Part shown: piece by piece, positions 1 to 50,635 of the stretch | Position numbering within the stretch: the stretch's first letter is position 1 | Layout of the letters: every line of letters begins with the position of its first letter | From: a virus | Taxonomy: Duplodnaviria; Caudoviricetes | Direction: 5' to 3' (one strand) | IMG/VR virus record: IMGVR_UViG_3300032308_000777 | Span: 1-52,572 of that record | Length of the DNA: 52,572 bases | Notes under the pieces: model-generated | The model's database searches: none | Seen by the model: only the letters and a program-made list of their open reading frames with translations | What the model was told of the DNA's origin: nothing | Program-made: the position numbers and the translations under genes

Positions 1-123
1 CAAGCTGGCCAAGCTGCTCAAGGGCACTCAGGAGACCCTGCCGGCAGCAGAGCGTCAGGCCAACCTTGCCAAGTTCATTGAGCCTAGCAAGGTGCAGCAG
101 CGCCTGTACCACGGCACCACTGC
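1..123. repeat. Terminal direct repeat, copy 1 (identical to 52450-52572); circular assembly overlap
   Basis: First 123 nt match the last 123 nt exactly and an ORF reads through the junction in frame. Confidence 0.95.
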
Positions 124-3100
124 CACTGAGGGCGGCAAGAAGCAGGAGGCCATCCGCCGCTTCAAGCCCAGCAAAGAGGGCGCACTCGGCTCTGGCGTCT
201 ACATGACACCCAAGCCCACTTACGCCGGCGAGTACACCAGTGGGGCTGGCGGCAACATGCTGCCGGTCTATGCCCAGATCAAGAACCCTCTGGTTATTGA
301 GGGCAAGGGCGACCCGATGATCGAGGCGCTGATCAAGCTCGGGATCGATGAGAACAAAGCCGTCAGTATGGTGGAGCGGGCCTACGAGAACAAGGGCTAC
401 ATCGGCAAGGAGGTGGAGTCCCGTGCCCGTGCTGCCGGCTACGACGGCCTGATGCAGTACCGCGACGGCGACCTGAGCGAGGTGGTGTCCTACAACCCCA
501 ACGCGGTCAAGTCGGCCATTGGCAACAAGGGTACATACGACACCAACAAGCCCGACCTGAACGAGGCCGCTGGTGGTGCTGTTCATATGCAGGCCGGTGG
601 TATTGCTCGGTTGCTCAATGCTGGAAAGGGCGCGAAGAAGACCCCGCCTGCCGCTGAGACAAAAATCATCCAGGCCCCAACGGTAGTAGTTCCCAGCAAG
701 TTGAGCAACGTCAAAGAGGCGGTGCGTCAAAGCAAGGGCGACTACGGCGCTCGGCGGGTTGAGCGTGCTGCCGACGAAATCCCGAACCTTGAGCGGATGT
801 ACAAGGAAGAGGGGCTTCGCTCCGCCTTCACTGGTGACAACGCTCAGGCTTTGATGACCATGAACCCTGCGGACTTTGAAAAGTTTGCACTGCCATTGGT
901 CAAAAGCAAGGGGGCCAGAGGCCCCATGAGCAGCAGCGGGGAAGTCGACAAGTACACGCTACCCACTGACGAATACGTCCAGTACCTCCAGGGGTTACGC
1001 GGCGGCTTTTCGGATGTTCCGTTTTTGGGCATCAACAAAGAAGAATACGGTCTGCCGCTCAAGCCTTTTATTTCGGGCCACGAGGGGCGTCACCGTAGCC
1101 GAGCTTTGGCACAGTCCGGTCAGCCCACAAGTCTGGTTCGACTGGTTCCCCGCGCTGAGTTGCGTGAGCCATTCCCGCGCCGTACTCAGGAAGAGTACAT
1201 CCAAGCGTTGCGTGATGAACTGGACTTGACTGGCAACTTGGTCATGCCTGAAGGGGGTGCCGGATCCGCGGTTGTTCTGCCTGACATTTACGCCAAGGGT
1301 GGCGAAGTCCGCATGAAGAAGGGTGGCGAACCGGTTGATCCGCGCTTCCGCACTGCTGGCGGTGACCCGCTCAATGAGTTCGTCCCCCCGCGCTACCGCA
1401 GTGCTGGCCGCCGGCCGGAGTCGCAGCAGGATCGCGAGGCATCAAAGAACGTTCCGGTGGCTGTTGCCCGCGGTCTGGTGTCTGGTTCCCTGGGTTTGCC
1501 GGCAGACTTACTGAACCTGCCCGGTGCTATTTATTCCGGTGTCACCGGCAAAGAATCCTACGAGTTGCCGTTCGGTTCCGAATACATTGAGAAGCGCCTA
1601 CCCTTCCGCGGCGCGAGCCAGACGCCGGTAGGTGAGTTGTTCACCGGGTCTGGCCAGTTGGCTGGCGGCTTCTACACCGGCCCAGGATCTGGCGCTAGGG
1701 CTGCGATGGCCGTACCCAAGGCGATCAAGCGGGCTGTTCAAGACTTTGCTATGGCTTCGACCGAGGGCGTCCCTCGGATGTTCATCGGCCCCAAGGCCAA
1801 GACATGGGATCGGGCCAAGGCAGACGCTGCCGCCCGCCTGGAGCAGGAGGGAAGAGATCCTGTGGATATCTGGCGTCAGACCGGCACCTTCCGCGGCGCT
1901 GACGGCATCCAGCGCCAGGAGATCAGCGACGTTGGGGCGATCTACCGCAACCCGACGGATCTCAAAGAGTTGGGCAAGCAGAAGAAGCAAGAGGCCCTTG
2001 ATCTACAGCAGCGTATGGTCACGCCGATGGGCCAGAAGGACATGTTCCCCAAGGCCCTTACGGAGGCCAGAAAGCCTGCCCGAGAGCAAGTCAAGCGCCT
2101 GAAAGAAGAGGCCGACGAGCTTGGCCGCTTCTCGGATGTCCGTGGCCAGAGCGCCAAGTTTGTGCTGGAGCATCCCGAGTTGTACCGGGCATATCCTGAG
2201 CTTGCGGACATAAATGTCTTGCAAGGTGGCCGTGGCGTTGGAAACGAGAGAGCATCATTGATAGGTGGTAAGAACGACATGGAGATGGAGGTCACCCAGT
2301 CGGGCTTGAGACAAAATCCGCGCTCGAGCATGCTCCACGAGATGCAGCACGCCGTTCAGACTCTAGAGGACATGGCGCCCGGTGGACTCCCGCGGATGGC
2401 TTTCCAAGACCCGAAGGCTTTTGAGATCTTGAAAGACTTGCGAGCCAAGGCGTCAACTCCTATGAGCTTTGATGAGTACGCCGAGCGGTATTCCCATCTG
2501 GCCAACAAGGAAGCCGGGTATCAGGATTACCTGAAGTCCATCCCTGGCATCGTCAAGGGCATGGACCGCGAGCTTCAGAGCCAAGCCGCGATGGAATACT
2601 ACAAGCGGCTGGCTGGTGAGGCAGAGGCCAGGGCTACCCAGACACGCGAGGGGATGACCGCAAGTCAGCGAGCGCAAGATTTCCCGTATGGCAGCTACGA
2701 CGTTCTGCCCGAAGATCTGATCGTCAAGCCGGTAAAAGAAAGCGGAATTCAGGCTCAAATTGATTTTGACCAATTAAAGTCCGGTGGAATTGAAGTTCCG
2801 TCTGCCGGGTTCAGCAAGGAAGACAAAGTCAAGCTGCGACCGCTTTATAACCAGGGCTTGATCCGGGTTGAAGAGATAGGCGGCAAGAAAATGATTGTTC
2901 CGGGCAGGGGTGCTTGGTACGAGTTTGCGACACCAGAACAAAGAACAACGCTTGATTCTTTGCAAAGAAGCGATGGCGTTAGAGACCTCACATTGATGGG
3001 CCCCACCGAAAGCCTTCTCAATTCGGCGCAAGCCAGCTTCTTTGATTTTGAAATTGTTCCCGGGGTCAGAAATGTCCCCATTAAAAATCTTGAGCCGCTC

Positions 3101-4822
3101 TTGCCTGGATATGATTCGCCAAATGAGATGAGAAGGATTCAAGACCTTTCTGATCAGATTAAAGAGTCCAAACAAATTGAGCCTCTTTTCATTGGTGTTG
3201 ACCCGACTGGCTCTCAGTACATTATGGAGGGACAGCACAGAATTCGAGCGTTGAAGGCGCTTGGATATGATGAGGTTCCGGCTCGAATTGTTGTGGACAT
3301 GGATGACATTGAAAAAGCCAGCGGCGGCGAGGTGAAGATGGCCGGCGGTGGTTTGTCAAAAGTTGCCATAGAGGCCATGTCTAAATTAAAGGGCATGAGA
3401 AAAGAATTCGTTGACAATGCCGCTGAACAAGCTCGATATAAAAAAGAAACAGCACATATATCAACCAAAGATTTGCCAAGCTTTGAAGAATGGAAAGCCC
3501 AGCAGATCAACGTTACTCCTGAGAACATTGAGCAGTTGAGGAAAGAGACCGGCAATCGGGCCGGAGGCGAGGTCAAAATGCAAGCCGGTGGTGCGGCCGG
3601 GATGATCAAGAACTTGCTCAAGGGCGCTCAAAAGGCCGAGAAGGTTGAGCATCCCCTAGTGTTCCCTCGGGCAGAGCCAAAGACCAGGGAGCAGATTCGA
3701 CCCATCGCCCAGCGTGTGTCCGAACAGATGACTGGTGAGTTCGTCCGCCAGAACCCCAAGGTCACCACGAACCCGGCAGGCAAGTCCCGCAAGCAGTTTG
3801 AGCGCGAGCGGAACATCCCTCTTGAGACTCGCAACGTCGTGCCCGAAAGAACGGCGCCGGTGTTGGACTACGAGAAGTTTAAGGACTACGCGATTGTCGG
3901 CGTCCCAGGCGATCCATCAATGGGTGGTGTAGCCAAGGCCGGCAGCCTGAGTGAGTCGGCCAAGCCAACGGTCGAGCTTACCCGCGTGGGAGACATTACG
4001 CCAGATTCCCCTGTGCCACTGTTTGGTGGCCCTCGCTTTGGTGATGACGAGAAGTTCTGGGCTTCCAACATCGGCGCTGCCAAGCCCATCCAGACCAACG
4101 TCACCGAGCTTTCTGAGTTATACGACTCGCCGGTGCTTGGCAAGTACATCAAGATGGCGCCCGACTCGGCCAACTTTGCGATCCACAATCTTGACTCCTT
4201 GCTTGCAATCCAGCGACCCGAGCGACTGAGCCCAGGAAAGATGGAGCAGTTGAACAAGGTGATCCGCGAAGGTTCTCCAAAGTATGGCAAGTTCCCGAAC
4301 TTCCCAGGGTTTGATGACCCCGTCGATGTTCTGCTTCAGTCGCAATTGAACTCCAAGCTGAGAAAGCACATCGCCGAGACCCTGACCAAGCCGACGATCA
4401 CCGACGAGTTGGGGCTGCCAAATGGCCTTGATGTGGTGACCGCCATCACGCACCCAGAACTCAGAAATTTGGAGACGGGCGTCAGTGGATTTTCTGTCGG
4501 CAGAATGCAGCCCGGCGCTGCTCTCAGGGCTGGCGAGTCATCTCACCCGACCTACGACACGGACATCCCTGGCGCCATGATTGGCCGCAGCAAGTACCCG
4601 ACTCCTTATGAGATCGCGTTTCCTGACACCACTGCATACGCTCGCAGTCAACTCAAGCCCGGCGTGCAGGAGTTCAACATGATGAAGTTGCTTGGCCCGC
4701 GTGAGCGCATTGACCAGCAATACATTGACGAGATGAAGATGTTCGAGGAACTGATGAAGCAGTACACCGGCAAGAAAAAGGGCGGCGCTGTTGGCGGCTT
4801 GTCCGCAGTTGAAAAGGTTTGA
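2..4822 (+). CDS. Large polyvalent protein, 3' part (true start 52262, ~1669 aa): ART-PolyVal-like ADP-ribosyltransferase, ParB/Srx-like, LPD23-like, zincin metallopeptidase, second ParB/Srx-like and unknown C-terminal domains
   Basis: LYHGT...GVYMT...PVYAQIKNPL (ART-like); GHEGRHR and MEGQHRIRAL (ParB/Srx); MFIGPKA...IWRQTG...GADG...EISD (LPD23-like); HEMQH...YKRLAGEAEAR (zincin); frame open from position 2; lies between terL and portal. Confidence 0.8.
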   Translation, partial: KLAKLLKGTQETLPAAERQANLAKFIEPSKVQQRLYHGTTATEGGKKQEAIRRFKPSKEGALGSGVYMTPKPTYAGEYTSGAGGNMLPVYAQIKNPLVIEGKGDPMIEALIKLGIDENKAVSMVERAYENKGYIGKEVESRARAAGYDGLMQYRDGDLSEVVSYNPNAVKSAIGNKGTYDTNKPDLNEAAGGAVHMQAGGIARLLNAGKGAKKTPPAAETKIIQAPTVVVPSKLSNVKEAVRQSKGDYGARRVERAADEIPNLERMYKEEGLRSAFTGDNAQALMTMNPADFEKFALPLVKSKGARGPMSSSGEVDKYTLPTDEYVQYLQGLRGGFSDVPFLGINKEEYGLPLKPFISGHEGRHRSRALAQSGQPTSLVRLVPRAELREPFPRRTQEEYIQALRDELDLTGNLVMPEGGAGSAVVLPDIYAKGGEVRMKKGGEPVDPRFRTAGGDPLNEFVPPRYRSAGRRPESQQDREASKNVPVAVARGLVSGSLGLPADLLNLPGAIYSGVTGKESYELPFGSEYIEKRLPFRGASQTPVGELFTGSGQLAGGFYTGPGSGARAAMAVPKAIKRAVQDFAMASTEGVPRMFIGPKAKTWDRAKADAAARLEQEGRDPVDIWRQTGTFRGADGIQRQEISDVGAIYRNPTDLKELGKQKKQEALDLQQRMVTPMGQKDMFPKALTEARKPAREQVKRLKEEADELGRFSDVRGQSAKFVLEHPELYRAYPELADINVLQGGRGVGNERASLIGGKNDMEMEVTQSGLRQNPRSSMLHEMQHAVQTLEDMAPGGLPRMAFQDPKAFEILKDLRAKASTPMSFDEYAERYSHLANKEAGYQDYLKSIPGIVKGMDRELQSQAAMEYYKRLAGEAEARATQTREGMTASQRAQDFPYGSYDVLPEDLIVKPVKESGIQAQIDFDQLKSGGIEVPSAGFSKEDKVKLRPLYNQGLIRVEEIGGKKMIVPGRGAWYEFATPEQRTTLDSLQRSDGVRDLTLMGPTESLLNSAQASFFDFEIVPGVRNVPIKNLEPLLPGYDSPNEMRRIQDLSDQIKESKQIEPLFIGVDPTGSQYIMEGQHRIRALKALGYDEVPARIVVDMDDIEKASGGEVKMAGGGLSKVAIEAMSKLKGMRKEFVDNAAEQARYKKETAHISTKDLPSFEEWKAQQINVTPENIEQLRKETGNRAGGEVKMQAGGAAGMIKNLLKGAQKAEKVEHPLVFPRAEPKTREQIRPIAQRVSEQMTGEFVRQNPKVTTNPAGKSRKQFERERNIPLETRNVVPERTAPVLDYEKFKDYAIVGVPGDPSMGGVAKAGSLSESAKPTVELTRVGDITPDSPVPLFGGPRFGDDEKFWASNIGAAKPIQTNVTELSELYDSPVLGKYIKMAPDSANFAIHNLDSLLAIQRPERLSPGKMEQLNKVIREGSPKYGKFPNFPGFDDPVDVLLQSQLNSKLRKHIAETLTKPTITDELGLPNGLDVVTAITHPELRNLETGVSGFSVGRMQPGAALRAGESSHPTYDTDIPGAMIGRSKYPTPYEIAFPDTTAYARSQLKPGVQEFNMMKLLGPRERIDQQYIDEMKMFEELMKQYTGKKKGGAVGGLSAVEKV

Positions 4823-4825
4823 CCT

Positions 4826-7363
4826 ATGGCTACAGAATTCCCCATTGACCCTGAGTTCAATCGTTTCGTTGGAGGCGAGCCCCAGGACCAAGACGACGAA
4901 GAGGGCGTCATCGTTGACATGCCCATGGACGAAGCAGAGATTGAGGAGCTTCCAGACGGCTCGGCCATCGTCCGCATGGATAGCAAGGGGCCGATGGAGG
5001 ATCAAGACTTCTACGCCAACCTAGCAGACGGCGACGCCACCAGCGCATATGACCTCGACAAGATGGCCCTGCGTTACATCGAACTGGTTGAGAAGGACAA
5101 AGAGGCCCGCAAACAGCGCGACAAGCAGTACGAAGAGGGCATCAAGCGCACCGGCATGGGCAACGACGCCCCTGGTGGAGCCAACTTCCAGGGCGCATCG
5201 AAGGTCGTTCACCCCGTAATGGCCGAGGCATGCATTGATTTTGCAGCTAGGGCCATCAAGGAGATGTTCCCGCCGGACGGCCCGACCAAGACCAAGATCC
5301 TGGGCGACGTTACTGAGGAGAAAACTGCGTCTGCCGAGCGCAAGCGCGACTACATGAACTGGCAATTGACCGAGCAGATCGAGGAATTCCGCGACGAGCA
5401 GGAGCAATTGCTCACCCAACTGCCTCTTGGTGGCTCGCAATACCTCAAGCTCTGGTACGACGAGAAGAAAAAGCGTCCCTGTGCGCAGTTTTTGCCCATC
5501 GACAACGTGCTTTTGCCCTTCGCATCGGCCAACTTCTACACCGCCCAGCGTTTTACTGAGGTTGACGACATCTCCGAGTGGGAATTCAAGCGCCGGATTG
5601 AGGCTGGGCTGTACAGAGACACCGCTCTGACCCGCGCAACGATGGACCCGGAGCCTACCGCGTCCCAAAAGGCCAACAACAAGATCGAAGGCAAGTCCCC
5701 GAACGAGAACGAGGACGGTCTGCGCCGGGTTTACCACGTCTACACATGGCTGGAACTTGAGGACGACCCGATCACCAAGGGCGATATGGCCCCGTACATC
5801 CTGATGATCGACGATCTGTCGACCGAGGTCATCGGTTTGTACCGGAACTGGGAGGAAGGCGACGACACGATGACCAAATTGGACTGGGTCATCGAGTTCA
5901 AGTTCATTCCTTGGCGTGGCGCCTACGCTGTTGGCCTGCCGCAGCTTATTGGAGGTCTCTCCGCGGCCCTTACAGGCTCTTTGCGGGCCCTTTTGGACTC
6001 TGCCCACATCAACAACGCTGCGACGCTCCTGAAGCTCAAGGGCGGCAAGATTTCTGGGCAGTCCCAGGAGGTCGAAGTCACCCAGGTTGTGGAGATCGAG
6101 GGCGCCCCAGGCGTGGATGACGTGCGCAAGCTGGCCATGCCCATGCCATTTAACCCGCCTTCGCAGGTGCTGTATCAGCTTTTGGGCTGGTTGACCAACG
6201 CCGCCAAGGGTGTGGTGACCACGGCCGAGGAAAAGATCGCCGACGTCAACTCCAACACCCCTGTCGGCACCACCCAGGCGCTGATTGAGCAGGGCGCGGC
6301 TGTTTTCTCGTCTATTCACGCCCGTTTGCACGAGTCTCAGGGGCGCGTGCTGCGTGTTTTGAGCCGGATCAACCGCTGGTACCTGGACGACATGCAGCGT
6401 GGCGAGGTCGTCGAGGATTTGGACATCAAGCGCGAGGATTTCATGCGGATCACCGACGTGATTCCGGTGTCCGACCCCCACATTTTCAGCGAAACCCAGC
6501 GGATGGCCCAGACCCAGGCGGTTATGGCCATCATGGACAAAAACCCGGACCTGTTCAACAAGCGGGCGGTCATTCAGCGCTTCCTCAAGCAGATCAAGGT
6601 GCCCGGCATCAACGAACTGATGACCGACGTGCCCTCTCCGGTCAAGCAGGACGCCGCCAACGAGAACGTAGCGATGGCCATCGGGCAGGCGGCCTTTGCT
6701 TACCCCGAGCAGGACCATTTGGGCCACATCCAGACGCACCTGGACTTCGCCAAGAGCCCGATCTTCGGCTCCAACCCAATGATTGCGCCTTCGTACCTGC
6801 CAAAGGCGGTGGATCACATCAAGCAGCACATTGTGCTGTGGTACCTCAACCGCATGAGCGGCTACGTCCAGAAGGCCATCGGCGGCAAGATGCCCGAGTA
6901 CGAGTTGCACAACGACCCGAAGATCCTAGACCAAATGTTCGGCGCCGCATCGCAGCATGTTGAGATGGATGCGGACCAGACCCTCAAGGGAATCCTGCCT
7001 GTCATCCAGCAACTCATGCAGGGCTTGCAGCAATTCAAGCCCCAACCGCAGATGCCGCCTGATGTCAAGGTTTTGCTGGATACCAGCATGGCCGAGACCC
7101 AACGCCGGCAGGCCCGCGATCAGGCCGAGATGCAACTCAAGGACAAGGAGCTTGCTGCAAGGATTCAGATGGACATGCAGGAGCTTGAGCAGAAGCAAGA
7201 GCGCGAGATGGAGGCCATGCAACTGAAGCTGGCCATCGCCCGCGGCGACAACGAGATGAAAGAGCGCATCGAGACAGCCCGCCTAACGCGAGATGCGGCC
7301 AAGCTCAACTTCGAGCAGGTCAAGGCTGTACAACCCCAAGGAGGCCAGTATGGCTATGAGTGA
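4826..7363 (+). CDS. Portal protein
   Basis: 845 aa; HPVMAEACIDF, RDYMNWQL and PVGTTQALIEQG motifs typical of podovirus-like portals; coiled-coil C-terminus; position. Confidence 0.85.
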   Translation: MATEFPIDPEFNRFVGGEPQDQDDEEGVIVDMPMDEAEIEELPDGSAIVRMDSKGPMEDQDFYANLADGDATSAYDLDKMALRYIELVEKDKEARKQRDKQYEEGIKRTGMGNDAPGGANFQGASKVVHPVMAEACIDFAARAIKEMFPPDGPTKTKILGDVTEEKTASAERKRDYMNWQLTEQIEEFRDEQEQLLTQLPLGGSQYLKLWYDEKKKRPCAQFLPIDNVLLPFASANFYTAQRFTEVDDISEWEFKRRIEAGLYRDTALTRATMDPEPTASQKANNKIEGKSPNENEDGLRRVYHVYTWLELEDDPITKGDMAPYILMIDDLSTEVIGLYRNWEEGDDTMTKLDWVIEFKFIPWRGAYAVGLPQLIGGLSAALTGSLRALLDSAHINNAATLLKLKGGKISGQSQEVEVTQVVEIEGAPGVDDVRKLAMPMPFNPPSQVLYQLLGWLTNAAKGVVTTAEEKIADVNSNTPVGTTQALIEQGAAVFSSIHARLHESQGRVLRVLSRINRWYLDDMQRGEVVEDLDIKREDFMRITDVIPVSDPHIFSETQRMAQTQAVMAIMDKNPDLFNKRAVIQRFLKQIKVPGINELMTDVPSPVKQDAANENVAMAIGQAAFAYPEQDHLGHIQTHLDFAKSPIFGSNPMIAPSYLPKAVDHIKQHIVLWYLNRMSGYVQKAIGGKMPEYELHNDPKILDQMFGAASQHVEMDADQTLKGILPVIQQLMQGLQQFKPQPQMPPDVKVLLDTSMAETQRRQARDQAEMQLKDKELAARIQMDMQELEQKQEREMEAMQLKLAIARGDNEMKERIETARLTRDAAKLNFEQVKAVQPQGGQYGYE

Positions 7364-7502: not shown

Positions 7503-7684
7503 AAACCATTGGCGACCTGATTGGTGGCATCAAGTCTAGGCAGGCTGAAATAGCCGCGTCCCTCGCTGCTGGTAATGCAGCGAACTGGGAGGCTTACCAC
7601 CGCATGGTCGGACATTACGCGGGCTTACAGGAGGCCCTTGACATCCTAAGTAACCTGATGAGGGAAGATGATGAAAATAAGTGA
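7499..7684 (+). CDS. Hypothetical protein (61 aa) of the portal-GroES interval
   Basis: ATGA overlap; NWEAYHRMVGHYAGL pattern; operon context. Confidence 0.7.
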   Translation: MKTIGDLIGGIKSRQAEIAASLAAGNAANWEAYHRMVGHYAGLQEALDILSNLMREDDENK

Positions 7685-8108
7685 ACCGGTAGCTTTTGAC
7701 GAAGCTGAGTTGGCTTGGGCTTTTCCGAGCGTAGACCCCGGTGCTAAACCTCTTGGCGGACGCATTCTTGTACAGTTGCGCCGCACCAAAAAGAAGGCAA
7801 CAAGCGCTGGGATTATTTTGGTCGAAGAAACCAAAGAGACCGAGAAGTGGCAGAACATGGTGGCCAAGGTCGTCGAGATTGGTCCGCTGGCATTCAAGCA
7901 TCGAGACACGATGCAGGCATGGCCAGAGGGGTCTTGGTGCGCCGTCGGCGACTACATCCGCGTCCCCAAGTGGGGCGGTGATCGTTGGGAAGTCAAAGTC
8001 CCCAACGATGACGATTTTGAGGATCCGGCACTGTTTATGGTTCTGAACGATCATGAGGTGATTGCAAAACTCACCGGTAATCCACTTGCGATGAGGGCCT
8101 TCCTGTGA
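7668..8108 (+). CDS. groES: Phage GroES-like co-chaperonin (Cpn10)
   Basis: KPLGGRILV, TSAGIIL mobile loop, VVEIGP, VGDYI, LNDHEVIA motifs. Confidence 0.85.
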   Translation: MMKISEPVAFDEAELAWAFPSVDPGAKPLGGRILVQLRRTKKKATSAGIILVEETKETEKWQNMVAKVVEIGPLAFKHRDTMQAWPEGSWCAVGDYIRVPKWGGDRWEVKVPNDDDFEDPALFMVLNDHEVIAKLTGNPLAMRAFL

Positions 8109-9051: not shown

Positions 9052-9594
9052 ATGGATACACGTCTCAAAAAAACTCTCAACGCCGGCGGCCGTGAGACAC
9101 GATCTTCGCAAGATCAGACCCGAGCCGCTCCCGAAGAGAAGTTCATGTCAGCGCAGGAACGTCGGAAGATGTGGAGCGATGAGTGGACACAAAGTGCGCT
9201 GCCAAAAGTTCCGGATATTCCGGGATGGCACCTTTGCTGGTTATCGACCACCAATGGATACGACAGCATTGATAAGCGGATGCGACTTGGCTATATACCT
9301 GTTAGCGCAGATGAATTGCCAAATTTCGAGAATTACCGCGTAAAGGCTGGCGAAGACATCGGTTTTATCGCATGCAACGAGATGCGCCTGTTCAAGATCC
9401 CAATGGAGATCTATCAGGACATCATGCTGCAAATGCACCATGAGGCTCCTCAAGAGGAGGCGGACAAGATCCGCGTCCAGGCAGAGAATCTTCAGGGAGC
9501 ACGCGATAGCTCAGGGAAATCCTTGGGTGCGGTTGAAGGCGAGGGATTTGGCAATTTCGACCGAACTGTGAAATCCCCTGTATTTCAGGGATAA
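9052..9594 (+). CDS. Hypothetical head-module protein
   Basis: 180 aa ORF in the head operon; PDIPGWHLCWLS...RLGYIPV. Confidence 0.7.
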   Translation: MDTRLKKTLNAGGRETRSSQDQTRAAPEEKFMSAQERRKMWSDEWTQSALPKVPDIPGWHLCWLSTTNGYDSIDKRMRLGYIPVSADELPNFENYRVKAGEDIGFIACNEMRLFKIPMEIYQDIMLQMHHEAPQEEADKIRVQAENLQGARDSSGKSLGAVEGEGFGNFDRTVKSPVFQG

Positions 9595-11849: not shown

Positions 11850-12977
11850 ATGGGTCAATTCAAGCCAATGGTCAAAATGATGACCACTGAGCCCTCGGTT
11901 GAACTGAAGCTCAAAAAAGGCGGCAAGGTTGAGAAGAAGATGCAGATGGGCGGCATGCCCGCTCCTTCAATGCCTGCTCGCGGTGGCATGATGCCCACTG
12001 CTTCCCCTGGGCGGCCTTCGATGGCTGCTCGTCGTCGTGCAATGATGGCTATGCCTGCCGGTGCTGCTCCTGCGGCCCCGGTTGGTATGGCTGGACGCAT
12101 GATGAAAGAGGGCGGCGAGTCCAAAGCCATGCACAAGTCTGAGATGAAGGCTATCAAAGGCCTGAAATCCGAGATGCAGTCCCACAAGGACAAACCTGCA
12201 TCAAAGGCCCACAAGGGCCTGAAGACCGGCGGCATGGCCTGCGCTACGGGCGGTGTAGTCATGGGCCAGGGCGGCTACAAGAAGGGCGGCATAGTTAAGA
12301 TGGCTGGCGTTCCAAAGAGCGGCATCATCAACACCGAAAACCAAGGCGGTGCTTACCGTGACACCATGATGCACACAGCCAAGCCTGATAACTCGCCGGC
12401 CAAAACCGGTGAAGTGAAATTGGGCAACGGCGGTGGGTATGCTACCGGTGGCGTGGCGAAGGCAAACGGCGGCGGATACCGCAAAGGTGGTGCCGCAAAA
12501 AAAGCCTACGCTACGGGGGGTCTTGTTGACACCGGCCGTCCCGTAGCGATGCCCCAGGGTCGCAAGACCCCATCGACTCCCGTGAGCATCAACCAACTCT
12601 CTGGCACCTTCAAGAAAGGCGGCAGTGTCACTGCTGCTCAAGGCCGCTTGCAGAAGAACTTCAAGAGCGAGAACGCTACGGCCATGAAACAGGCCAAGGC
12701 GTACTCCAACGAGGTTTACAGCAAGTACGGCAAGAAGATGAACGAGGGCGGCAAGGTTGACATGTCCAAGGGCGCCTACGACAAATCAATCGGCCCGACC
12801 GAGGAAGAGATGGGCATGGCCAAGGCCATCCGTTCAATTCCTCGCCGGATGATTGAGGGTGCAAAAAGCCTGTTCACCTCAAAAGAGGCTGAAAAGCCTG
12901 CCGGATCTGTTACCAAGACTGAGAAGTCCGTGACTGTGTCTCCTGGCAGAAAACGTGGCGGCGCAGTGAAGTGTTGA
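11850..12977 (+). CDS. Basic low-complexity protein with 12 or more hydrophobic-x-x-GG repeats
   Basis: 375 aa, K/G/M/A-rich; LKKGG, MKEGG, YKKGG, YATGG x2, YRKGG, FKKGG, MNEGG etc.; AAGGAG RBS. Confidence 0.8.
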   Translation: MGQFKPMVKMMTTEPSVELKLKKGGKVEKKMQMGGMPAPSMPARGGMMPTASPGRPSMAARRRAMMAMPAGAAPAAPVGMAGRMMKEGGESKAMHKSEMKAIKGLKSEMQSHKDKPASKAHKGLKTGGMACATGGVVMGQGGYKKGGIVKMAGVPKSGIINTENQGGAYRDTMMHTAKPDNSPAKTGEVKLGNGGGYATGGVAKANGGGYRKGGAAKKAYATGGLVDTGRPVAMPQGRKTPSTPVSINQLSGTFKKGGSVTAAQGRLQKNFKSENATAMKQAKAYSNEVYSKYGKKMNEGGKVDMSKGAYDKSIGPTEEEMGMAKAIRSIPRRMIEGAKSLFTSKEAEKPAGSVTKTEKSVTVSPGRKRGGAVKC

Positions 12978-13022: not shown

Positions 13023-13802
13023 ATGGGAACATATTCTTCCGCGACCCGTCAGGGCGCGTATGAGCCGTTTGAGTTGCAGGTGGCCCGTGGGCAAGTTGAT
13101 GGACACAAAGCCTTATATCAGTTTGGCATCAATGGTGATGTTGGTACATCTGTTGAAACAGTTTGGGCGCAAGGCGGAACATATGCGTATCCTGCTGCCG
13201 CAACTGTTATGAAAATTTCTAGTTCCAGCGCGGATGACGCGGCGGCTGGGACTGGCGCAAGAACAATTTCAATTGCTGGTCTTGACGCTAACTACAACGA
13301 AATTAGCGAAACAGTAATTCTTAACGGTCAGACCGAAGTCAACACTGTTAATAGTTACTTGCGTATTTCTCGTATGTTTGTTGTTACCGCTGGCTCTGGT
13401 GCAACTGCCGCAGGTACTATTTACGCTGGTACTGGCACTGTTACTTCTGGTGTACCAGCAACCGTTTACGGCATGATTGCCTTTAATGCAAACCAAACGC
13501 AAATGGCGTTTTGGACTGTGCCAGCGGGATACACCCTGTATTTAATGGGAACTTTCTACTCATCTGGAAACGCAACTGCAAACGCATTTACAAACTTCCA
13601 GTTGATTCAACGCCCATTTGGTGGCGTGTTTAGACAGCAAAGTTCTACACGAACACCCGGCAGTGGAGACTTTGTGCTTGACCTGCACACTCCTATTGCT
13701 TTTGCTGAAAAAACTGACATTGAACTTAGGGCTGTTGCTTCAGCAGGGGCTTCTAATGTGTCTGCTGAGTTTGAAGGCATCTACATTAAGAACCCTGACT
13801 AA
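13023..13802 (+). CDS. Putative virion structural protein
   Basis: 259 aa, beta-rich; GTGARTISIAGLDANYNEISETVILNG motif of the kind seen in phage structural proteins. Confidence 0.6.
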   Translation: MGTYSSATRQGAYEPFELQVARGQVDGHKALYQFGINGDVGTSVETVWAQGGTYAYPAAATVMKISSSSADDAAAGTGARTISIAGLDANYNEISETVILNGQTEVNTVNSYLRISRMFVVTAGSGATAAGTIYAGTGTVTSGVPATVYGMIAFNANQTQMAFWTVPAGYTLYLMGTFYSSGNATANAFTNFQLIQRPFGGVFRQQSSTRTPGSGDFVLDLHTPIAFAEKTDIELRAVASAGASNVSAEFEGIYIKNPD

Positions 13803-13804
13803 TC

Positions 13805-14323
13805 ATGCCAAGCAAATCACCAGCCCAACATCGTTTGATGCAAGCCGCCGCCCACACCAAAGGCGGCTTTGGTGGTGTGCCACAAAAGGTCGGCAAAGAA
13901 TTTGTCAAGGCCGACAAAAAAATGAAAGATGGTGGAGTTGTCCAGTCTTTGAAAAAGGCTGGTTTTTATGAGCCATCTAAAAGCAAATCTGAGCGATTGA
14001 AAATTGTCAACGATGTGACGACTAAGCCTCAACGGCTGGGCATGGTTGAGAAGATGTTTTCTGAGAAAAAAATGAAGAGCGGCGGGGTATCTCTTGCTGT
14101 CGGTCGCGGTGAAAAGTTGCCTGTTGAAAAGGGTGCAGGCCTGACGGCCAAGGGCCGGGCGAAGTACAACCGAGAGACCGGTGCAAATTTGAAGGCCCCG
14201 CAGCCGCAAGGGGGCTCCCGCCGGGACTCCTTTTGCGCGAGAATGGGGTCTATTGCGGAGAAGAGCGAAGAGGGCAGCCGTTCTCGAGCCTCCATGAAGC
14301 GTTGGAATTGCCCTGGATGGTGA
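13805..14323 (+). CDS. Basic protein with DUF6321-like C-terminus and two MKxGG motifs
   Basis: GLTAKGRAKYNRETGANLKAP...RRDSFCARM...RWNC; MKDGGVV, MKSGGVS. Confidence 0.6.
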   Translation: MPSKSPAQHRLMQAAAHTKGGFGGVPQKVGKEFVKADKKMKDGGVVQSLKKAGFYEPSKSKSERLKIVNDVTTKPQRLGMVEKMFSEKKMKSGGVSLAVGRGEKLPVEKGAGLTAKGRAKYNRETGANLKAPQPQGGSRRDSFCARMGSIAEKSEEGSRSRASMKRWNCPGW

Positions 14324-15416: not shown

Positions 15417-15761
15417 ATGCCGATCTTCCTTGACACCCTCGGCTACTCTGACATCGCAATCGCAGTATGCGACCGGTGCAAGATGAAGCGCCCGCACGCA
15501 GTGATGCGCAGCGATCCCAACTTTCCTGGATTACAAGTCTGTAATGAAGGGTGCGCCGACAACTTTGACCCCTACCGATTGCCCGCTCGCAAAACCGAAA
15601 GGATAACGATTCGGTTTCCAAGGCCGGACGTTTCGGTTGCGGTCAATCCTAACAATTTGAGTGCTGGTGAGCCTTACGGCGGTGCGGTGTTGTCTCCTGA
15701 GCAAAATATTGACACGCCGGAGAACAACGGCAACCTTGACGGTTTGGAGATCCAGCCCTGA
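15417..15761 (+). CDS. Hypothetical protein with CxxC...C motif
   Basis: IAVCDRC...GLQVC...PRPD; tail operon. Confidence 0.65.
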   Translation: MPIFLDTLGYSDIAIAVCDRCKMKRPHAVMRSDPNFPGLQVCNEGCADNFDPYRLPARKTERITIRFPRPDVSVAVNPNNLSAGEPYGGAVLSPEQNIDTPENNGNLDGLEIQP

Positions 15762-15762
15762 T

Positions 15763-18111
15763 ATGCCAAACATTACCATCACCCAACTGCCTGCGGCCGG
15801 TCCTATTACTGGCACTGAGTCAGTCCCAATCGTCCAGAACGGGCAGACCGTGCGCACGACTGCGGCTGCTTTGGCCGGCTCTCCGGTTCAGACGCAGACC
15901 TTCCTGACGCTCAATCAAGAGCCAACCCTGATCAACAGTCGGGCGCTTTCTGGTGGCACCGGGATCGGCCTGCTTGACGGTGGTGCGCTCTCGACCCTTC
16001 AGATCACGCTCAATGGCACCTCTGGGGCCTTGGAGGGTGCTGGTACAGGGATCATTGTCAAAACCGGCTCTGGGGCCGTTTCTGCCCGTTCTGTGGCGGT
16101 TTCCGGTACCGGACTTGCCATCTCTAACGGATCCGGTGTTTCTGGAAACCCGACGATCTCTCTGAATGGATTGATTTCGGCCATCGCCCAGGTCGGTGGG
16201 ACGGGTCTTTTGGCTTTCCAGAACGGGGCTACCGCAGGCGGCGTGTTGATCGCTGGCACCGCAAATCAGATCAGTGTGGCCAACGGAAATGGCCAGGGTG
16301 GCAATCCGACCATCTCAATGGTTTCTGATCCGATCATCCCAGGCACTGCCGGTATGGTCATCCCGGTCGGCACGGCTGTGCAGGAGCCGGTTGGAGCCCC
16401 AGGACAGTTCCGCTTCAACAGCACCACGCAGACTTTTGACGGTTATGCGTCGGGGCAGTGGAGGCAGTTTTCTCAAGCTGGAGGCGTGACGACATTCAGC
16501 GCTGGCTCTACGGGACTGACTCCATCTGCCGCAACGACTGGAGCCATCACCCTTGGTGGAACGCTCAACGTCTCCAGCGGCGGCACTGGAGCGAGTACGT
16601 TGACCGGGTATCTGGTCGGGAACGGCACGAGTGCTATCACAGCGGTCGCCACGATACCGAATGCCGGCCTGACAAACAGCGCGATCACCATCAACGGGTC
16701 TTCGGTCTCTCTTGGTGGATCGATCACAGTGACGGCCACCGCATCAAATGCGCTGACCATTGGTACGGGTCTGTCTGGGAGCAGCTACAACGGATCAAAC
16801 CCGGTCACCATTGCAATTGACTCGACCGTGGCCACGCTGACGGGCACGCAGACTCTGACGAACAAGAGCATCAGTGGCTCAACGAACACGCTGACCAACA
16901 TCCCGAATGGGGCGCTGACGAACTCTTCAGTGACTGTTGGCACAACCGCCATCTCCTTGGGCGGCTCAAGCGTGACTCTGGGCGGCCTTACATCGGTTGC
17001 GGTAACCCAGGATCCGACGACTGCGCTTCAATTGACCACCAAGCAGTACGTTGACACTTTGGTGGCTTCTGGCATTCATTTTCATCAGCCGGTGAGAGTG
17101 GAGTCGACGATTGCTCTGACTGCAACCTACAACAACGGTGCCTCTGGTGTTGGTGCCACGTTGACCAACGCAGGCACACAAGCCGCACTGGTGCTCGACG
17201 GCGTGACTGTTGCGGTCAATGATCGCGTGCTGATCTATCAGCAAGCCAACCAGACGCAAAACGGCATCTATGTGGTGACGAACGTCGGCTCTGGATCGAC
17301 CAACTGGGTGCTCACCCGTTCTTCTGATGCAGACACCTACGTCATCAACAGCGCCAATGGCCTGAGTGAGGGATCGACGGTTTTTGTGCAGCAGGGCACG
17401 ATTGCAGCAGGTGATACCTACACCTGCAACACCTCTGGCGTCATCACGTTCGGCACAACTAACATTACGTTTGCCCAGGTTTCCGCGGCACAGGTTTACA
17501 GTGCCGGCACCGGCCTGACCTTGACCGGAACTCAGTTCAGCATCACCAACACAGCGGTGACTGCCGCATCGTATGGAAGTGCAAGCTCGGTTGCGACTTT
17601 TACGGTCAATGCTCAGGGTCAATTGACGGCTGCGGCATCGACTGCGATTGCCATCAACGGCAACCAGATCACTTCGGGCACAGTTGGGTCGGCATATATC
17701 AGCGGTTCATACACCGGCATCACCGGGGTTGGTACGCTGACCGCAGGCACATGGAACGCCTCGGCGATCTCTGACATCTACCTTTCGACCATCTCGACTG
17801 CTGGCAAAGTTGCAAACAGCGCCACGACTGCGACGAGCGCGAATACGGCCAGTGCGATTGTGGCCAGGGACGCATCTGGGAACTTCAGCGCCGGGACTAT
17901 CACGGCTGCTCTAAGTGGTAACGCAAGCACCGCAACCACCGCAACAAATGCAACAAACACGGCGATCACAGCCAATTCGACCAATGCGACGAATTACCTG
18001 ACGTTCGTGTCCGCAACCAGTGGAAATTTGCCACAATTGGTGAATTCCAACCTGACGGTAAACCCAAGCACTGGAAGTTTGACAGGCGGGATTCAAGGCG
18101 GGGCATTCTGA
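15763..18111 (+). CDS. Tail fibre protein
   Basis: Start MPNITITQLPAA; G/T/S-rich; TGTQTLTNKSI and DRVLIYQQANQTQNGIYVV fibre motifs; ends IQGGAF. Confidence 0.8.
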   Translation: MPNITITQLPAAGPITGTESVPIVQNGQTVRTTAAALAGSPVQTQTFLTLNQEPTLINSRALSGGTGIGLLDGGALSTLQITLNGTSGALEGAGTGIIVKTGSGAVSARSVAVSGTGLAISNGSGVSGNPTISLNGLISAIAQVGGTGLLAFQNGATAGGVLIAGTANQISVANGNGQGGNPTISMVSDPIIPGTAGMVIPVGTAVQEPVGAPGQFRFNSTTQTFDGYASGQWRQFSQAGGVTTFSAGSTGLTPSAATTGAITLGGTLNVSSGGTGASTLTGYLVGNGTSAITAVATIPNAGLTNSAITINGSSVSLGGSITVTATASNALTIGTGLSGSSYNGSNPVTIAIDSTVATLTGTQTLTNKSISGSTNTLTNIPNGALTNSSVTVGTTAISLGGSSVTLGGLTSVAVTQDPTTALQLTTKQYVDTLVASGIHFHQPVRVESTIALTATYNNGASGVGATLTNAGTQAALVLDGVTVAVNDRVLIYQQANQTQNGIYVVTNVGSGSTNWVLTRSSDADTYVINSANGLSEGSTVFVQQGTIAAGDTYTCNTSGVITFGTTNITFAQVSAAQVYSAGTGLTLTGTQFSITNTAVTAASYGSASSVATFTVNAQGQLTAAASTAIAINGNQITSGTVGSAYISGSYTGITGVGTLTAGTWNASAISDIYLSTISTAGKVANSATTATSANTASAIVARDASGNFSAGTITAALSGNASTATTATNATNTAITANSTNATNYLTFVSATSGNLPQLVNSNLTVNPSTGSLTGGIQGGAF

Positions 18112-18115
18112 GGCC

Positions 18116-18793
18116 ATGTTCTACACATACGCACACTTCAGACCAGACAACTCGGTGTTCTACATCGGGAAGGGCCGTGGTCGTCGTGCGTGGTCAAGGG
18201 ACTATCGCAATAACCATTGGAACCACATTGTTGCCAAGTATCCTGACTACAAGATTGAAATCTTGGCACGATGGGAAGACGAAAAAGAAGCTTTTGCTCA
18301 CGAAGTGTTTTTGATTGAAACTTTTCGGGGCATGGGCGTTCAACTGACAAATGTCACCAATGGTGGAACGGGCGTTGCTGGTTACAAACACACGCCTGAA
18401 TCCATTCAAAAACGATTGGATTCCATGCAAGGATATTTGCCTTCAGAGGAAACTAAGGCAAAAATGCGCGAAGCCCATCTGGGTGAAAAGAATCATTTTT
18501 TTGGGCGCAATCATTCCGAAGAAACAAAAAATCGAATTGCTGAAGCCAAAAAAGCAAACCCATCTAAGCCATGGCTTGGCAAGCCAAGAAATGAAGAGAC
18601 ACGCAAAAAAATTGCTGATGCTTTGAAGGGGCGTGTTGGACACAAACATACTGATGAGTCAAAGCGCAAATTGTCTTTGGCTCATAAAGGCAAAAAACAA
18701 GCATCGCCCAGTGAGGAAACTAGAAAAAAATTGTCTGAATCCATTAAAGCATCATGGATTCTTCGTCGTCAAAAAGTAAGAAAAGAGGTTTAA
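18116..18793 (+). CDS. Free-standing GIY-YIG-like homing endonuclease with NUMOD3 repeats
   Basis: FYTYAH...VFYIGKG; repeated HSEETK/HTDESK; AT-richer than its flanks. Confidence 0.85.
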   Translation: MFYTYAHFRPDNSVFYIGKGRGRRAWSRDYRNNHWNHIVAKYPDYKIEILARWEDEKEAFAHEVFLIETFRGMGVQLTNVTNGGTGVAGYKHTPESIQKRLDSMQGYLPSEETKAKMREAHLGEKNHFFGRNHSEETKNRIAEAKKANPSKPWLGKPRNEETRKKIADALKGRVGHKHTDESKRKLSLAHKGKKQASPSEETRKKLSESIKASWILRRQKVRKEV

Positions 18794-18794
18794 C

Positions 18795-20966
18795 ATGGCC
18801 GCCAGTGGGTATACTCCTATTTTAATTTATGCCAGCGGCACTGCATCCAACGTGCCTTTGGCTGCGAATCTGACCAGCAGCGCATCTGGTGCTGAACTTG
18901 CGCTGAACTACGCGGATGGAAAACTGTATTTCAAGAACAGTTCCGGTGTGGTGACGTTGCTGGCTTCGTCGGCAGGTGCGTCTGGTGATGTGGTTGGCCC
19001 GGCATCTGCCACCGATAACGCTCTGGCGCGTTTTGATCTGACCACAGGCAAGCTGATCCAGAACTCCGTTGGTATCCTGAGCGATGCAGGCGCATTGTCT
19101 GGACTGACTGACATCAGCGCATCTGGCAACGTGACTCTCTCCGGAGGCACCGCAAACGGTGTGGCCTACCTCAACGGCAGCAAAGTCCTGACCACTGGGT
19201 CTGCGCTGACGTTTGATGGGACGAATTTGACTGTCCCTGCGGAGATTTATCGCACTTCGGCAACCAGCTATGTCCGTTTGGCAGGCGGCGATGCAGCGGC
19301 TGCTGGTGCATACGTTTTAGCGTTTGGGCAATCGCATGCTTCAGCCCCCGGAAGACTTTCGCTGGGTACGTCGGGCACCGGCTCTATGCTTTTTGATATT
19401 GGCGGCTCCGAACAAATGCGCCTGACCAGCACAGGGCTGGGTATAGGGATAACAAATCCCGCCAACAAACTGGTGGTTTCAAACGGGGGCGCAAACGGCC
19501 TTGAGATTAACCCAACGTCTGGAGTGAGTAGCGGTGCATCTCTGAACGGGTACAACAGATCGACAAGTGCTTTTACCCCTTTGACGTACACGGCAATAGC
19601 GCACTATTTTCAAACTGGAAGCAGTCCTGCAACAGCAGCCACCCTCGACTCCAGCGGCAACCTGGGTATAGGGACGAGTTCGCCACAAAGCAAAATCCAA
19701 GTCAACCCGACTGGCGCGTATGGAATCGGCACTATATCCAATGCGGGTTTGAATATTTCCCCAACAAACATTACCGGCGGTTTTGCAACTGGTAGCGTGA
19801 TTTGGACAAACTACGCTCTTGGCGGAACTTCTGTAACTGCGTATATTTCTGCTGCTACATATGGCAATAACTACATGGACTTTAGCGCCAGTGGTACGGC
19901 TACGCAGATGCGCCTCGACTCCTCCGGCAACCTGGGCTTGGGGGTGACGCCGAGTACAGGTGGTTATGGAGTTGCATTTCAGTTCGCTCAAGCTGGTGAT
20001 GGCGGCGCTCTTACAGCCCAAGCTATTAGCGCGAACAACTACCCTGTCAATCTGACTGCAAATGCCATCAGCAGCGGTGCATCTACTTGGAAATACTTCA
20101 ACACAGACGCATCTTCAGCCAGTCGCTATCAACAAGTTGCTGGCGCTCACCAGTGGTTCACCGCCCCCTCCGGCACCGCAGGTAACGCTATCACATTTAC
20201 TCAGGCAATGACGCTGGATGCGAGTGGGAATTTGGGGTTGGGAGAAACATCTCCAAGCCAGAGACTTCATGTTAAAACATCTTCTTCTTCAATTTCGCTG
20301 TTTGATTCAACTGAAACTAACGGTGGATTTCTTACATTTTCTAGATCGGGAACGCCAAAAGGATATATAGGAAGTCCGTACCATTTAGTCATTCCAACTG
20401 GGTCAAATGATGACTTTGCGGTACGCGCCGTAAATAATCTGATACTTGTTACCGGCACCGCCGAACGCGCCCGTATCGACTCCAGTGGGAATTTTCTTGT
20501 AGCACAGACAATTCAAGGCCCAGCAAACTCATACAGTATGTGCTACGGGGCTGGCAACACTGGGGGGCTTGACTTGAGCCACCTTAATGGAGCTGCTAGC
20601 GGAACTATGTATGAGCGGTACAACTACAACGCTACAACGATTGGCTCTATCACACAGAACGGCACAACAGGTGTTCTTTACAACATAACCTCTGACCAGC
20701 GGCTGAAAGAAAATATTGTTGACGCCCCGGCAGCATCCAGCCTTATCGACGACATTCAAGTTAGGTCATTCGATTGGAAGTCTGACGGCAGTCATCAGAG
20801 GTATGGTTTCATAGCCCAAGAGCTTGTAGCCGTTGCTCCTGAAGCAGTGCATCAGCCAGTCAATCCTGATGAGATGATGGGTGTGGACTACTCCAAGCTC
20901 GTCCCCATGCTTGTCAAAGAAATCCAATCCCTGCGGCAACGTGTCGCTCAACTTGAAGGAAAGTAA
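18795..20966 (+). CDS. Tail fibre/spike with C-terminal intramolecular chaperone (peptidase S74-like)
   Basis: ELALNYADGKLYFKN N-terminus; xDSSGNLG repeats; TSDQRLKENI...GFIAQEL...VDYSKLVPML. Confidence 0.85.
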   Translation: MAASGYTPILIYASGTASNVPLAANLTSSASGAELALNYADGKLYFKNSSGVVTLLASSAGASGDVVGPASATDNALARFDLTTGKLIQNSVGILSDAGALSGLTDISASGNVTLSGGTANGVAYLNGSKVLTTGSALTFDGTNLTVPAEIYRTSATSYVRLAGGDAAAAGAYVLAFGQSHASAPGRLSLGTSGTGSMLFDIGGSEQMRLTSTGLGIGITNPANKLVVSNGGANGLEINPTSGVSSGASLNGYNRSTSAFTPLTYTAIAHYFQTGSSPATAATLDSSGNLGIGTSSPQSKIQVNPTGAYGIGTISNAGLNISPTNITGGFATGSVIWTNYALGGTSVTAYISAATYGNNYMDFSASGTATQMRLDSSGNLGLGVTPSTGGYGVAFQFAQAGDGGALTAQAISANNYPVNLTANAISSGASTWKYFNTDASSASRYQQVAGAHQWFTAPSGTAGNAITFTQAMTLDASGNLGLGETSPSQRLHVKTSSSSISLFDSTETNGGFLTFSRSGTPKGYIGSPYHLVIPTGSNDDFAVRAVNNLILVTGTAERARIDSSGNFLVAQTIQGPANSYSMCYGAGNTGGLDLSHLNGAASGTMYERYNYNATTIGSITQNGTTGVLYNITSDQRLKENIVDAPAASSLIDDIQVRSFDWKSDGSHQRYGFIAQELVAVAPEAVHQPVNPDEMMGVDYSKLVPMLVKEIQSLRQRVAQLEGK

Positions 20967-50041: not shown

Positions 50042-50635
50042 ATGCCAGAAACCGCCAAGAAGACCGCCGCAAAGGCGCCAAAACAGCCTCAGAAGGCCGC
50101 AAAGCCCAAAGCCAAGGGTGAGGTATCCATCGCGCCGCAAAAGCCTATAGAGCCCATAAAGAAGATGGGCCGCCCATCCAAGTACACCCCAGAGATCGCA
50201 CGGCAGATGTGCGAGCTCCTAGCAGATGGAGTCCCCCTAAGACAAATCTGCCGAATGGACGGCATGCCAGCATGGAGAACGGTGTATGACTGGATGACGC
50301 GAGATGAGGCTCTTTCCGCATCCATCGCACGCGCTCGTGAAGTTGGCCAGGATGCCATTGCCGAACAGGTCTGGCTAGACATCAACCTTCCTCCTGAGCG
50401 GATCCTGTCCGAGGGTGGTGGCCGGATCGACTCGGGCTATGTTCAATGGCAGAAGGCCAAGGCCGAGATCGCCCTGAAGCTTCTGGCCAAGTGGAACCCG
50501 AAGCGGTATGGCGACCGGGTTCAATTAGCCGGGGATGCTGACAGCCCAATCAAGATTGAGGCGGAGGTGCAGGCAGAGAACCTGCTGACCGCGATGCTCA
50601 ACAACGTCGAGTTGAAGAAGCAGGCTGATGACTGA
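50042..50635 (+). CDS. terS: Terminase small subunit
   Basis: GRPSKYTPEIA, LRQIC, MPAWRTVYDW, KWNPKRYGDR; directly upstream of terL. Confidence 0.85.
   Translation: MPETAKKTAAKAPKQPQKAAKPKAKGEVSIAPQKPIEPIKKMGRPSKYTPEIARQMCELLADGVPLRQICRMDGMPAWRTVYDWMTRDEALSASIARAREVGQDAIAEQVWLDINLPPERILSEGGGRIDSGYVQWQKAKAEIALKLLAKWNPKRYGDRVQLAGDADSPIKIEAEVQAENLLTAMLNNVELKKQADD

Follow-up and report, generated by a model that had tools for sequence, protein, structure and literature searches.

A tandem double-glycine peptide at the module joints of a phage polyvalent protein and its possible role as a processing signal

Here, we describe a 13-residue double-glycine peptide that recurs at the module joints of a polyvalent protein encoded by the phage record IMGVR_UViG_3300032308_000777, and comparison with homologues supports the motif as a signal that is real and under selection at module boundaries. 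Polyvalent proteins are regarded as arsenals that are injected along with the phage genome. The window, meaning the whole stretch of DNA that was analysed, is a complete virus record of 52,572 bases with an exact 123-bp direct terminal repeat, in which positions 1-123 equal 52450-52572. The open reading frame (ORF) of the polyvalent protein spans this repeat, running from 52262 to the record end and on to 4822 in a single frame of 1669 amino acids (aa), and the database protein P0007 (1669 aa) is 100% identical to it. Because the gene crosses the repeat, a linear reading of the record splits the ORF and separates the first motif copy from the others. The two parts of the ORF and its motif copies are as follows.

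52262 to 52572, + strand: N-terminal part of the polyvalent ORF, covering the leader (residues 1-51), motif copy 1 and the beginning of the ADP-ribosyltransferase (ART) module
2 to 4822, + strand: remainder of the polyvalent ORF, residues 64-1669, stopping 4 nucleotides (nt) ahead of the portal gene
52406 to 52444, + strand: motif copy 1, FAEGGEAQMQAGG, at the joint of leader and ART module
563 to 601, + strand: motif copy 2, EAAGGAVHMQAGG, at the joint of ART module and module 2
1289 to 1327, + strand: motif copy 3, YAKGGEVRMKKGG, at the joint of module 2 and the LPD23-zincin block
3314 to 3352, + strand: motif copy 4, KASGGEVKMAGGG, immediately C-terminal of ParB_N
3554 to 3592, + strand: motif copy 5, NRAGGEVKMQAGG, at the joint of a short peptide and the C-terminal module, with an AlphaFold predicted local distance difference test (pLDDT) score below 50
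4772 to 4819, + strand: terminal copy and tail, KKKGGAVGGLSAVEKV, conserved as the C-terminal end in related polyvalent proteins, with pLDDT below 50
1658 to 1693, + strand: degenerate copy LAGGFYTGPGSG, upstream of a homology boundary at residues ~641-680
2774 to 2797, + strand: degenerate copy LKSGGIEV, at the zincin/ParB homology boundary, residues ~961-1000

The five 13-aa copies and the terminal copy were recovered with exactly the translations and coordinates that an initial annotation of this DNA had given, while its description of the copies as equally spaced was mistaken, since they start at residues 52, 254, 496, 1171 and 1251 with spacings of 202, 242, 675 and 80 aa. When all six frames of the whole window were searched, the pattern GG.{3}M.{2}GG was found only as these five copies. 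The initial annotation had allowed that the motif might be no more frequent than glycine content predicts; in 20,000 shuffles of the polyvalent protein the mean was 0.0049 copies and the maximum 1, so that the five observed copies go well beyond composition.

To define the motif among relatives, we used a homologue set of 120 of the 443 relatives from a word-indexed search, with the window's own protein included. The double motif was present as 165 copies in 88 of these 120 proteins, with the consensus [YKMF]-A-x-G-G-[EAD]-V-[HKR]-M-x-x-G-G. With the remainder of the motif in place, 144 of 173 cases retained Met, 144 of 162 retained Val, and 144 of about 151-153 retained either Gly pair. The double motif consists of two core units in tandem, and the core unit, [FYMLIVWK]-[AK]-x-G-G-x-[VAI], occurs 546 times in the homologue set versus 20 ± 5 times in shuffles. 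In some relatives exactly one 8-residue unit is lost, as in FAAGG-FAKLAKK compared with FAAGGEAQMQAGGFAKLAKK.

The position of the motif was then compared with the borders of homology. In BLAST comparisons of the query with 119 homologues, match ends cluster at the five copies and, in addition, near residues 650 and 990, where the module boundaries have degenerate copies only. None of the copies lies within a Pfam hit, and the earlier placement of the copies at module boundaries and outside domains is thus borne out. When five of the query modules were placed onto the homologues, where they account for 43% of all residues, 510 of 542 core units fell outside the mapped modules, 31 at a trailing edge and 1 internally. 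The order of the modules is permuted, with 47 different arrangements among the 119 homologues, and where the "C-terminal" module is placed internally it is followed by a full double motif instead of the tail KKKGGAVGG. Thirty relatives share the 51-residue leader, and in every one it is N-terminal with the motif directly after it. An alignment of homologues had been proposed earlier as a check on module exchange, and at the protein level modules do exchange and permute at the motif. As a separate observation, the polyvalent ORF of some relatives (loci L015-L019, L023 and L027) ends in a Cys/His cluster after the terminal GG unit, reading LCGCHD, SCACDD or SCDCHD at the end, which may be a metal site.

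The modules of the polyvalent protein and the genes on either side of it are listed below.

101 to 535, + strand: ART-PolyVal ADP-ribosyltransferase module (Pfam PF18760, E 1.4e-16)
1778 to 1930, + strand: LPD23 domain (Pfam PF18838, E 6e-9)
2336 to 2350, + strand: HEMQH, a zincin-type HExxH sequence motif
3131 to 3313, + strand: ParB_N-like module (Pfam 22 bits, cut-off 26.3; PHROG 1033, E 7e-9)
3644 to 4777, + strand: folded C-terminal module, the commonest module among homologues, with a weak PUA-like (YTH/ASCH) fold match
50628 to 52046, + strand: large terminase (TerL) gene (Pfam Terminase_6N/6C), upstream of the polyvalent ORF
4826 to 7363, + strand: portal gene (PHROG 1216), directly 3' of the polyvalent ORF

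Several conflict-related domains (ART-PolyVal, LPD23 and ParB_N-like) are thus found in one chain, and the gene has a late, virion-gene context, lying between the portal gene and the terminase genes (TerL among them) at 50042-52046; a position next to TerL is shared by 22 of 23 polyvalent-like loci. The ParB_N-like assignment is consistent among PHROGs, NCBIfam and PDB Noc matches despite the Pfam score below the cut-off, and Noc/ParB (E 0.008) was the sole match of a phmmer search of the polyvalent protein against PDB chains. The HEMQH stretch matched no Pfam or NCBIfam model, and PHROG 13543, of unknown function, covers residues 721-794 of P0001. The C-terminal module folds well in AlphaFold (mean pLDDT 83 with a 15-sequence alignment), while copy 5 (construct residues 1-38) and the terminal copy (417-430) are below pLDDT 50. 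A clasp, in which both flanks of the module pair as strands, was considered and set aside, as AlphaFold leaves both flanks of this module unstructured. Foldseek gave nothing at E <= 0.001 against the PDB, and the best VIA-align match (YTH, Z 5.9) is under the trustworthy level. The weak matches of the C-terminal module (Z 4.5-5.9) are to YTH, ASCH, EVE/THYN1, Lon-N and McrB-N, which are readers of modified nucleic acids, and they give a lead towards a counter-defence role.

This architecture resembles the polyvalent proteins described by Iyer, Burroughs, Anand, de Souza and Aravind in 2017 (PMC5512222), namely a giant late-gene chain with ART-PolyVal, LPD23, a putative zincin (HExxH) and ParB-like domains, for which packaging and injection were expected and zincin-mediated processing into units was proposed. 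Unlike in that description, the joints in the window carry a fixed peptide, and the motif is also present where a zincin is not encoded. The words "linker" and "glycine" are absent from the main text of that paper, which does not describe a joint motif, and we found no description of the motif in the literature, with the supplementary alignments of Iyer et al. outside the coverage.

The core unit is not confined to the polyvalent protein. Related shorter motifs had been reported by the initial annotation in three other late genes, and we confirmed them in ORFs 11850-12977, 13805-14323 and 29644-33168.

11850 to 12977, + strand: Gly/Lys/Met-rich protein of 375 aa with six strict core units, an invariant N-terminus and the C-terminus RKRGGAVKC
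13805 to 14323, + strand: DUF6321 protein of 172 aa, with a short N-terminal domain, two core units (MKDGGVV and MKSGGVS) and DUF6321
32788 to 33165, + strand: C-terminus of a tape-measure-like ejection protein of 1174 aa, with FKQGGMA, more GG units and a conserved domain that tape-measure proteins also have

In the window's ORFs, 10 core units were counted versus 1.5 expected. Judged by the portal, the closest named relatives are the uncultured phage MW202545 (60%), Caulobacter phages of the RW type (48%), Roseobacter phage CRP-901 and Pelagibacter phage HTVC023P. MW202545 is likewise enriched in the core unit (15 versus 1.5 expected), but Caulobacter phage RW (2 versus 1.4) and CRP-901 (0 versus 1.4) are not.

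The Gly-rich protein is predicted to be disordered (AlphaFold mean pLDDT 46.9) and is a core gene of the lineage. It was found in 35 of the 80 portal-related loci with DNA extending to this slot, including loci without a polyvalent gene ahead of the portal. In relatives it is 310-470 aa long and has 7-11 core units, with variable spacers and a variable number of repeats. Across the window and the 35 loci, 22 of its first 25 residues are invariant and its C-terminus is of the KKRGG-x-V-x-C type, with Cys last in nearly all; one relative has a run of 15 Gly. A phmmer search of this protein against PDB chains gave nothing meaningful. The ejection protein (ORF 29644-33168) precedes an SLT-bearing internal virion protein. 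Within positions 32100-32500 it also has three Cys-spaced repeats, CPEGY-x-x-NLNT-x-x-C, with weak CBM_14/cEGF matches, and a run of ~25 residues that are mostly Pro.

The C-terminal domain of ORF29644 is common to proteins annotated as tape measure (PHROG 6090, tblastn). A tape-measure-like C-terminal domain of ~60 aa (PHROGs 6090, 23013 and others) with a core GG unit ahead of it was found for ORF29644 only. In Arthrobacter phage RadFad, the domain (profile match E 2e-10) is flanked by KKAGGGPV and KFATGGAA, and the RW counterpart has NMARGGYAV ahead of the domain and the C-terminus YMDGGRV.

To see how widely the motif is distributed, a degenerate DNA pattern was derived from it, which matches at least 120 IMG/VR stretches. 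Position -3 was unspecified in the pattern, and the contrast between viral and cellular matches serves as a built-in control. Among the 123 viral matches listed, Phe, Tyr, Met or Lys was found at -3 in 100 (81%) and His, Lys or Arg at +4 in 64, compared with 8 (7%) and 14, respectively, of 121 matches in cellular genomes. By this control, the matches in viruses are genuine copies of the motif, and most of those in cellular genomes arise by chance. As such, the motif is a practical marker, as its DNA pattern yields motif-like peptides in 81% of the viral matches versus about 7% in cellular genomes. Several carrier families can be told apart among the viral matches listed, namely 23 polyvalent-like proteins, 14 proteins whose motif lies exactly 100 residues before the C-terminus, 11 with the motif at residue 54 and 13 small proteins of 85-147 aa. 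Of 120 sampled motif loci, 71 contain a structural homologue of this phage, and the motif genes occupy three fixed slots: between TerL and portal (22 of 23 next to TerL), between capsid and adaptor, and beside the ORF26396 homologue (12 of 14). The motif is missing from the polyvalent proteins of Pseudomonas phage F116 and MW202426. The small proteins (loci L089, L092, L108, L111, L121, L133, L155, L161, L163, L175, L189, L200 and L207) are basic, with a Cys-containing domain marked by PSAYA, the double-GG motif as a joint and a Lys-rich tail, and their genes adjoin the capsid and adaptor genes of related phages.

As for function, we tentatively put first the reading that the motif is a processing signal at the module joints, a possibility that we hold to be short of probable. 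We prefer it because the joints are exposed and placed exactly where separate products would be needed, because an N-terminal leader followed by the motif resembles a propeptide, and because experiments on delivered phage proteins offer precedents for cutting at comparable sites. The motif itself, its conservation, its disorder, its boundary position, its confinement to viruses and the permutation of modules are shown by the data, and the cutting of the window's protein, its agent and its timing are what we infer. The element is a short linear peptide of two tandem 8-residue units, hydrophobic/Lys - Ala/Lys - x - Gly - Gly - x - Val/Ala - basic, placed in disordered linkers at the joints of a beads-on-a-string chain composed of the leader, five independently folding modules and the tail. 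Other proteins expected in the particle and delivered through the tail use the core unit as well. In the processing reading, a trans-acting or assembly-triggered protease would cut at or beside the unit, giving the leader, the ADP-ribosyltransferase, the ParB-like nucleases, the zincin block and the C-terminal module as separate products, and the Gly-rich protein would be broken into peptides.

The precedents come from tape-measure and tail-tip proteins. The tape measure pb2 of T5 is reported to be cleaved after R1127 (PMC10038345), and this cut falls directly before A-E-G-G (FVPR/AEGGMM), where FVPRAEGGMM holds the lone GG of the last ~700 residues. In lambda, gpH is converted to gpH* by loss of a ~14-kDa piece from its glycine-rich C-terminal region, and the cut site and the catalyst are stated as unknown in this account, the Ur-lambda paper (PMC12617516); the last 120 residues of gpH contain HFATGGF, GYATGGYV and MRDGGLF. 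As is expected of the window's protein, both are delivered, with the T5 joint beside A-x-G-G and a Gly-rich stretch with F/Y-A-T-G-G in lambda, and the reported cut separates a C-terminal module in each case. Unlike in T5 and lambda, which have a single site each in these accounts, the tandem 13-mer of the window recurs along the chain. For Tal of phage TP901-1, PMC11409707 describes proven proteolysis at a Gly-rich motif between modules, which Gly-to-Arg changes abolish. The motif in the Tal proteins of TP901-1 and Tuc2009 likewise lies at a structural/catalytic junction of a virion protein, and Tal's is cut; it differs from the window's motif in that the Tal site is one Gly/Asn/Ser run in the tail-tip protein of a Gram-positive (lactococcal) siphovirus.

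Gly-Gly marks processing sites in the virion precursors of adenovirus and African swine fever virus (ASFV) and in double-glycine leader peptides, and the initial annotation had drawn on these analogies. The Gly-Gly landmark is indeed shared, but the register of the hydrophobic residue is different, and the window's motif is conserved after the GG as well. In the adenain-type (M/I/L)-x-G-G site the conserved residue is one place closer to the glycines than the conserved Tyr, Lys, Met or Phe of the window's motif, which stands three places before the first Gly, while the place two before it, corresponding to adenain P4, is Ala in 113 of 154 copies. In this register the motif does not match the adenain type. 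Nor does it match a double-glycine leader: a 51-residue leader is followed by GG, but the motif recurs internally and C-terminally, and no C39 peptidase or transporter hit was obtained among the ORFs scanned.

Several results weigh against processing. Scans of 27 late ORFs with Pfam, PHROGs and NCBIfam revealed no protease and, in particular, no clan-CE peptidase. An HExxH is lacking in 28 of 119 motif-bearing homologues, and MW202545, with its 15 core units, has no HExxH in any gene-length frame, so that a zincin acting in cis is not the general protease. The extreme C-terminal copies (the terminal copy of the polyvalent protein and that of the Gly-rich protein) would free just 8-14 residues, and a 13-residue recognition element of two repeats is unusual for a cleavage site. 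Furthermore, the tape-measure-like domain profile scored lambda gpH at E 250 and did not find T5; as such, both are motif-level resemblances only.

An ORF at 9052-9594 (+ strand, 180 aa), between scaffold-like and capsid genes, was considered as a hidden protease and dropped, as all family, Atlas and PDB-profile searches were empty. It has a mean column identity of 80% in 14 phages, far above that of its neighbours, with invariant W59-H60-x-C62-W63, C108-N109-E110 and H129. Pfam, PHROGs, NCBIfam, the ESM Atlas and a 14-sequence profile against the PDB gave no assignment, and the ORF may encode a head-module enzyme that has escaped recognition.

A docking or loading tag, for which cleavage is not obligatory, fits the C-terminal copies, the disordered Gly-rich core protein and the tie to one virion module almost as well as processing does, and we regard it as possible, if on the doubtful side. 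The motif would then be a sticker bound by a conserved virion component (the portal, the scaffold, the capsid interior or the adaptor) or by its own copies. The disordered Gly-rich protein with its 7-11 stickers would be a multivalent hub, and the shared sticker would bring the polyvalent effectors, the DUF6321 protein and the ejection protein into the particle together. The placement at extreme C-termini and directly behind the N-terminal leader, the multivalent copies with spacers of variable length and the presence of the Gly-rich core gene even where no polyvalent gene lies upstream of the portal are all in line with docking, as are the tie to one type of virion module, seen in the shared structural homologues and in the three fixed slots, and the motif-free polyvalent proteins of F116 and MW202426. 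On the other hand, no partner was identified, and Caulobacter phage RW shows no enrichment although its capsid is 75% and its portal 48% identical.

Short terminal peptides are known to send cargo into HK97-fold shells, as in the internal proteins and Alt of T4 and in encapsulin cargo. The capsid-targeted cargo of T4 includes an ADP-ribosyltransferase, and the T4 peptide is removed afterwards. Unlike these targeting peptides, the window's motif is found at internal joints, and the core unit is also present in tail tape-measure proteins, bracketing a domain inside that of a siphovirus. This argues against a capsid-only role and weakens a pure head-sorting tag.

A reading as a structural joint only appears rather improbable to us. 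The motif would be a conserved flexible hinge that lets the modules fold, unfold and thread the portal/tail channel singly, with the boundary position and the shuffling as by-products, since recombinants would be viable only at joints. While the disordered linkers, the permuted module order, the clean loss of one 8-aa unit and the expectation that all carriers (tape-measure-like, ejection and polyvalent proteins) pass the tail agree with a hinge, flexibility does not need the near-invariant spacing of fixed Tyr/Phe, Ala, Val, His/Lys and Met across unrelated modules. The motif peptide found with the viral matches to the DNA pattern is also absent among the cellular-genome matches.

The remaining two readings place the selection on nucleic acid, and both are disfavoured by the codon data. 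Every one of the 87 motif copies in 80 related loci (1.22 Mb) is in frame with an ORF of 300 aa or more, and the other five frames have none. The five DNA copies of the window share 20-27 of 39 nt (51-69% identity), without a long identical run. In 58 distinct DNA copies of the motif (loci L003-L082), Gly codons end in T or C about evenly, and GGT or GGC encodes the first Gly of the two pairs in all 58 and in 56 copies, respectively; GGA or GGG is thus found there in 0 and 2 of 58, versus 27% of the other Gly codons. Considering that synonymous codons vary, selection acts on the peptide and not on the DNA. The scarcity of GGA and GGG fits avoidance of internal Shine-Dalgarno-like or slippery G runs, and it indicates that a Shine-Dalgarno-like GGAGG is avoided rather than selected.

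The initial annotation had suggested that the linker DNA might serve as a module-swapping junction. The part of this that concerns the protein stands, since homology between relatives ends at the motif and modules exchange there; that the linker DNA itself is a selected recombination element is very unlikely, as the copies are only 51-69% identical, synonymous sites vary and conservation tracks the amino acids. Least credible of all are internal translation restarts, with GGN-GGN-GAR as ribosome-binding site and the invariant Met, which has G-rich codons 9-15 nt upstream, as module start codon, considering that GGAGG is avoided, that the amino acids on either side of Met are conserved and that many single units have no Met.

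Returning to processing, a shared "joint code" (hydrophobic/Lys - Ala - x - Gly - Gly - x - Val) may be proposed, albeit as a long shot, to mark the disassembly points of tape-measure proteins, podovirus ejection proteins and polyvalent proteins that leave via the tail, with a cutting mechanism that is possibly assembly-triggered or autocatalytic. If true, such a code would predict the cleavage site of lambda gpH, explain that of T5 pb2 and show the release route of polyvalent effectors. With a core-like unit at the T5 cut and in the Gly-rich region of lambda gpH, the old question of tape-measure cleavage becomes testable. A fixed joint peptide is also a concrete, mutable handle on how one polyvalent chain becomes many working parts, and it lets the modules of giant metagenomic proteins be delimited from sequence alone. 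In a bolder variant, the unit may serve the disordered Gly-rich protein and its clients as a sticker with which they form an internal condensate, and this condensate would select capsid cargo.

A Cpn10/GroES-like gene at 7668-8108 (+ strand; Pfam E 1.5e-6) is hidden under a longer antisense ORF (7536-8054), and a co-chaperonin after the portal is annotated likewise in RW, CRP-901 and MW202545. Its loop, KKKATSAGIILVEE, loosely resembles the core unit. A complex predicted between the apical domain of E. coli GroEL and residues 118-172 of the Gly-rich protein scored 0.01 ("no answer"), and mimicry of the GroES mobile loop by the core unit is a faint lead. ORF 13023-13802 matched only unnamed viral clusters in the ESM Atlas. 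A NUMOD3/homing-endonuclease gene (18116-18793, + strand) lies between two tail-fibre-like genes (15661-18111 and 18795-20966), of which the latter ends in a Peptidase_S74 chaperone domain.

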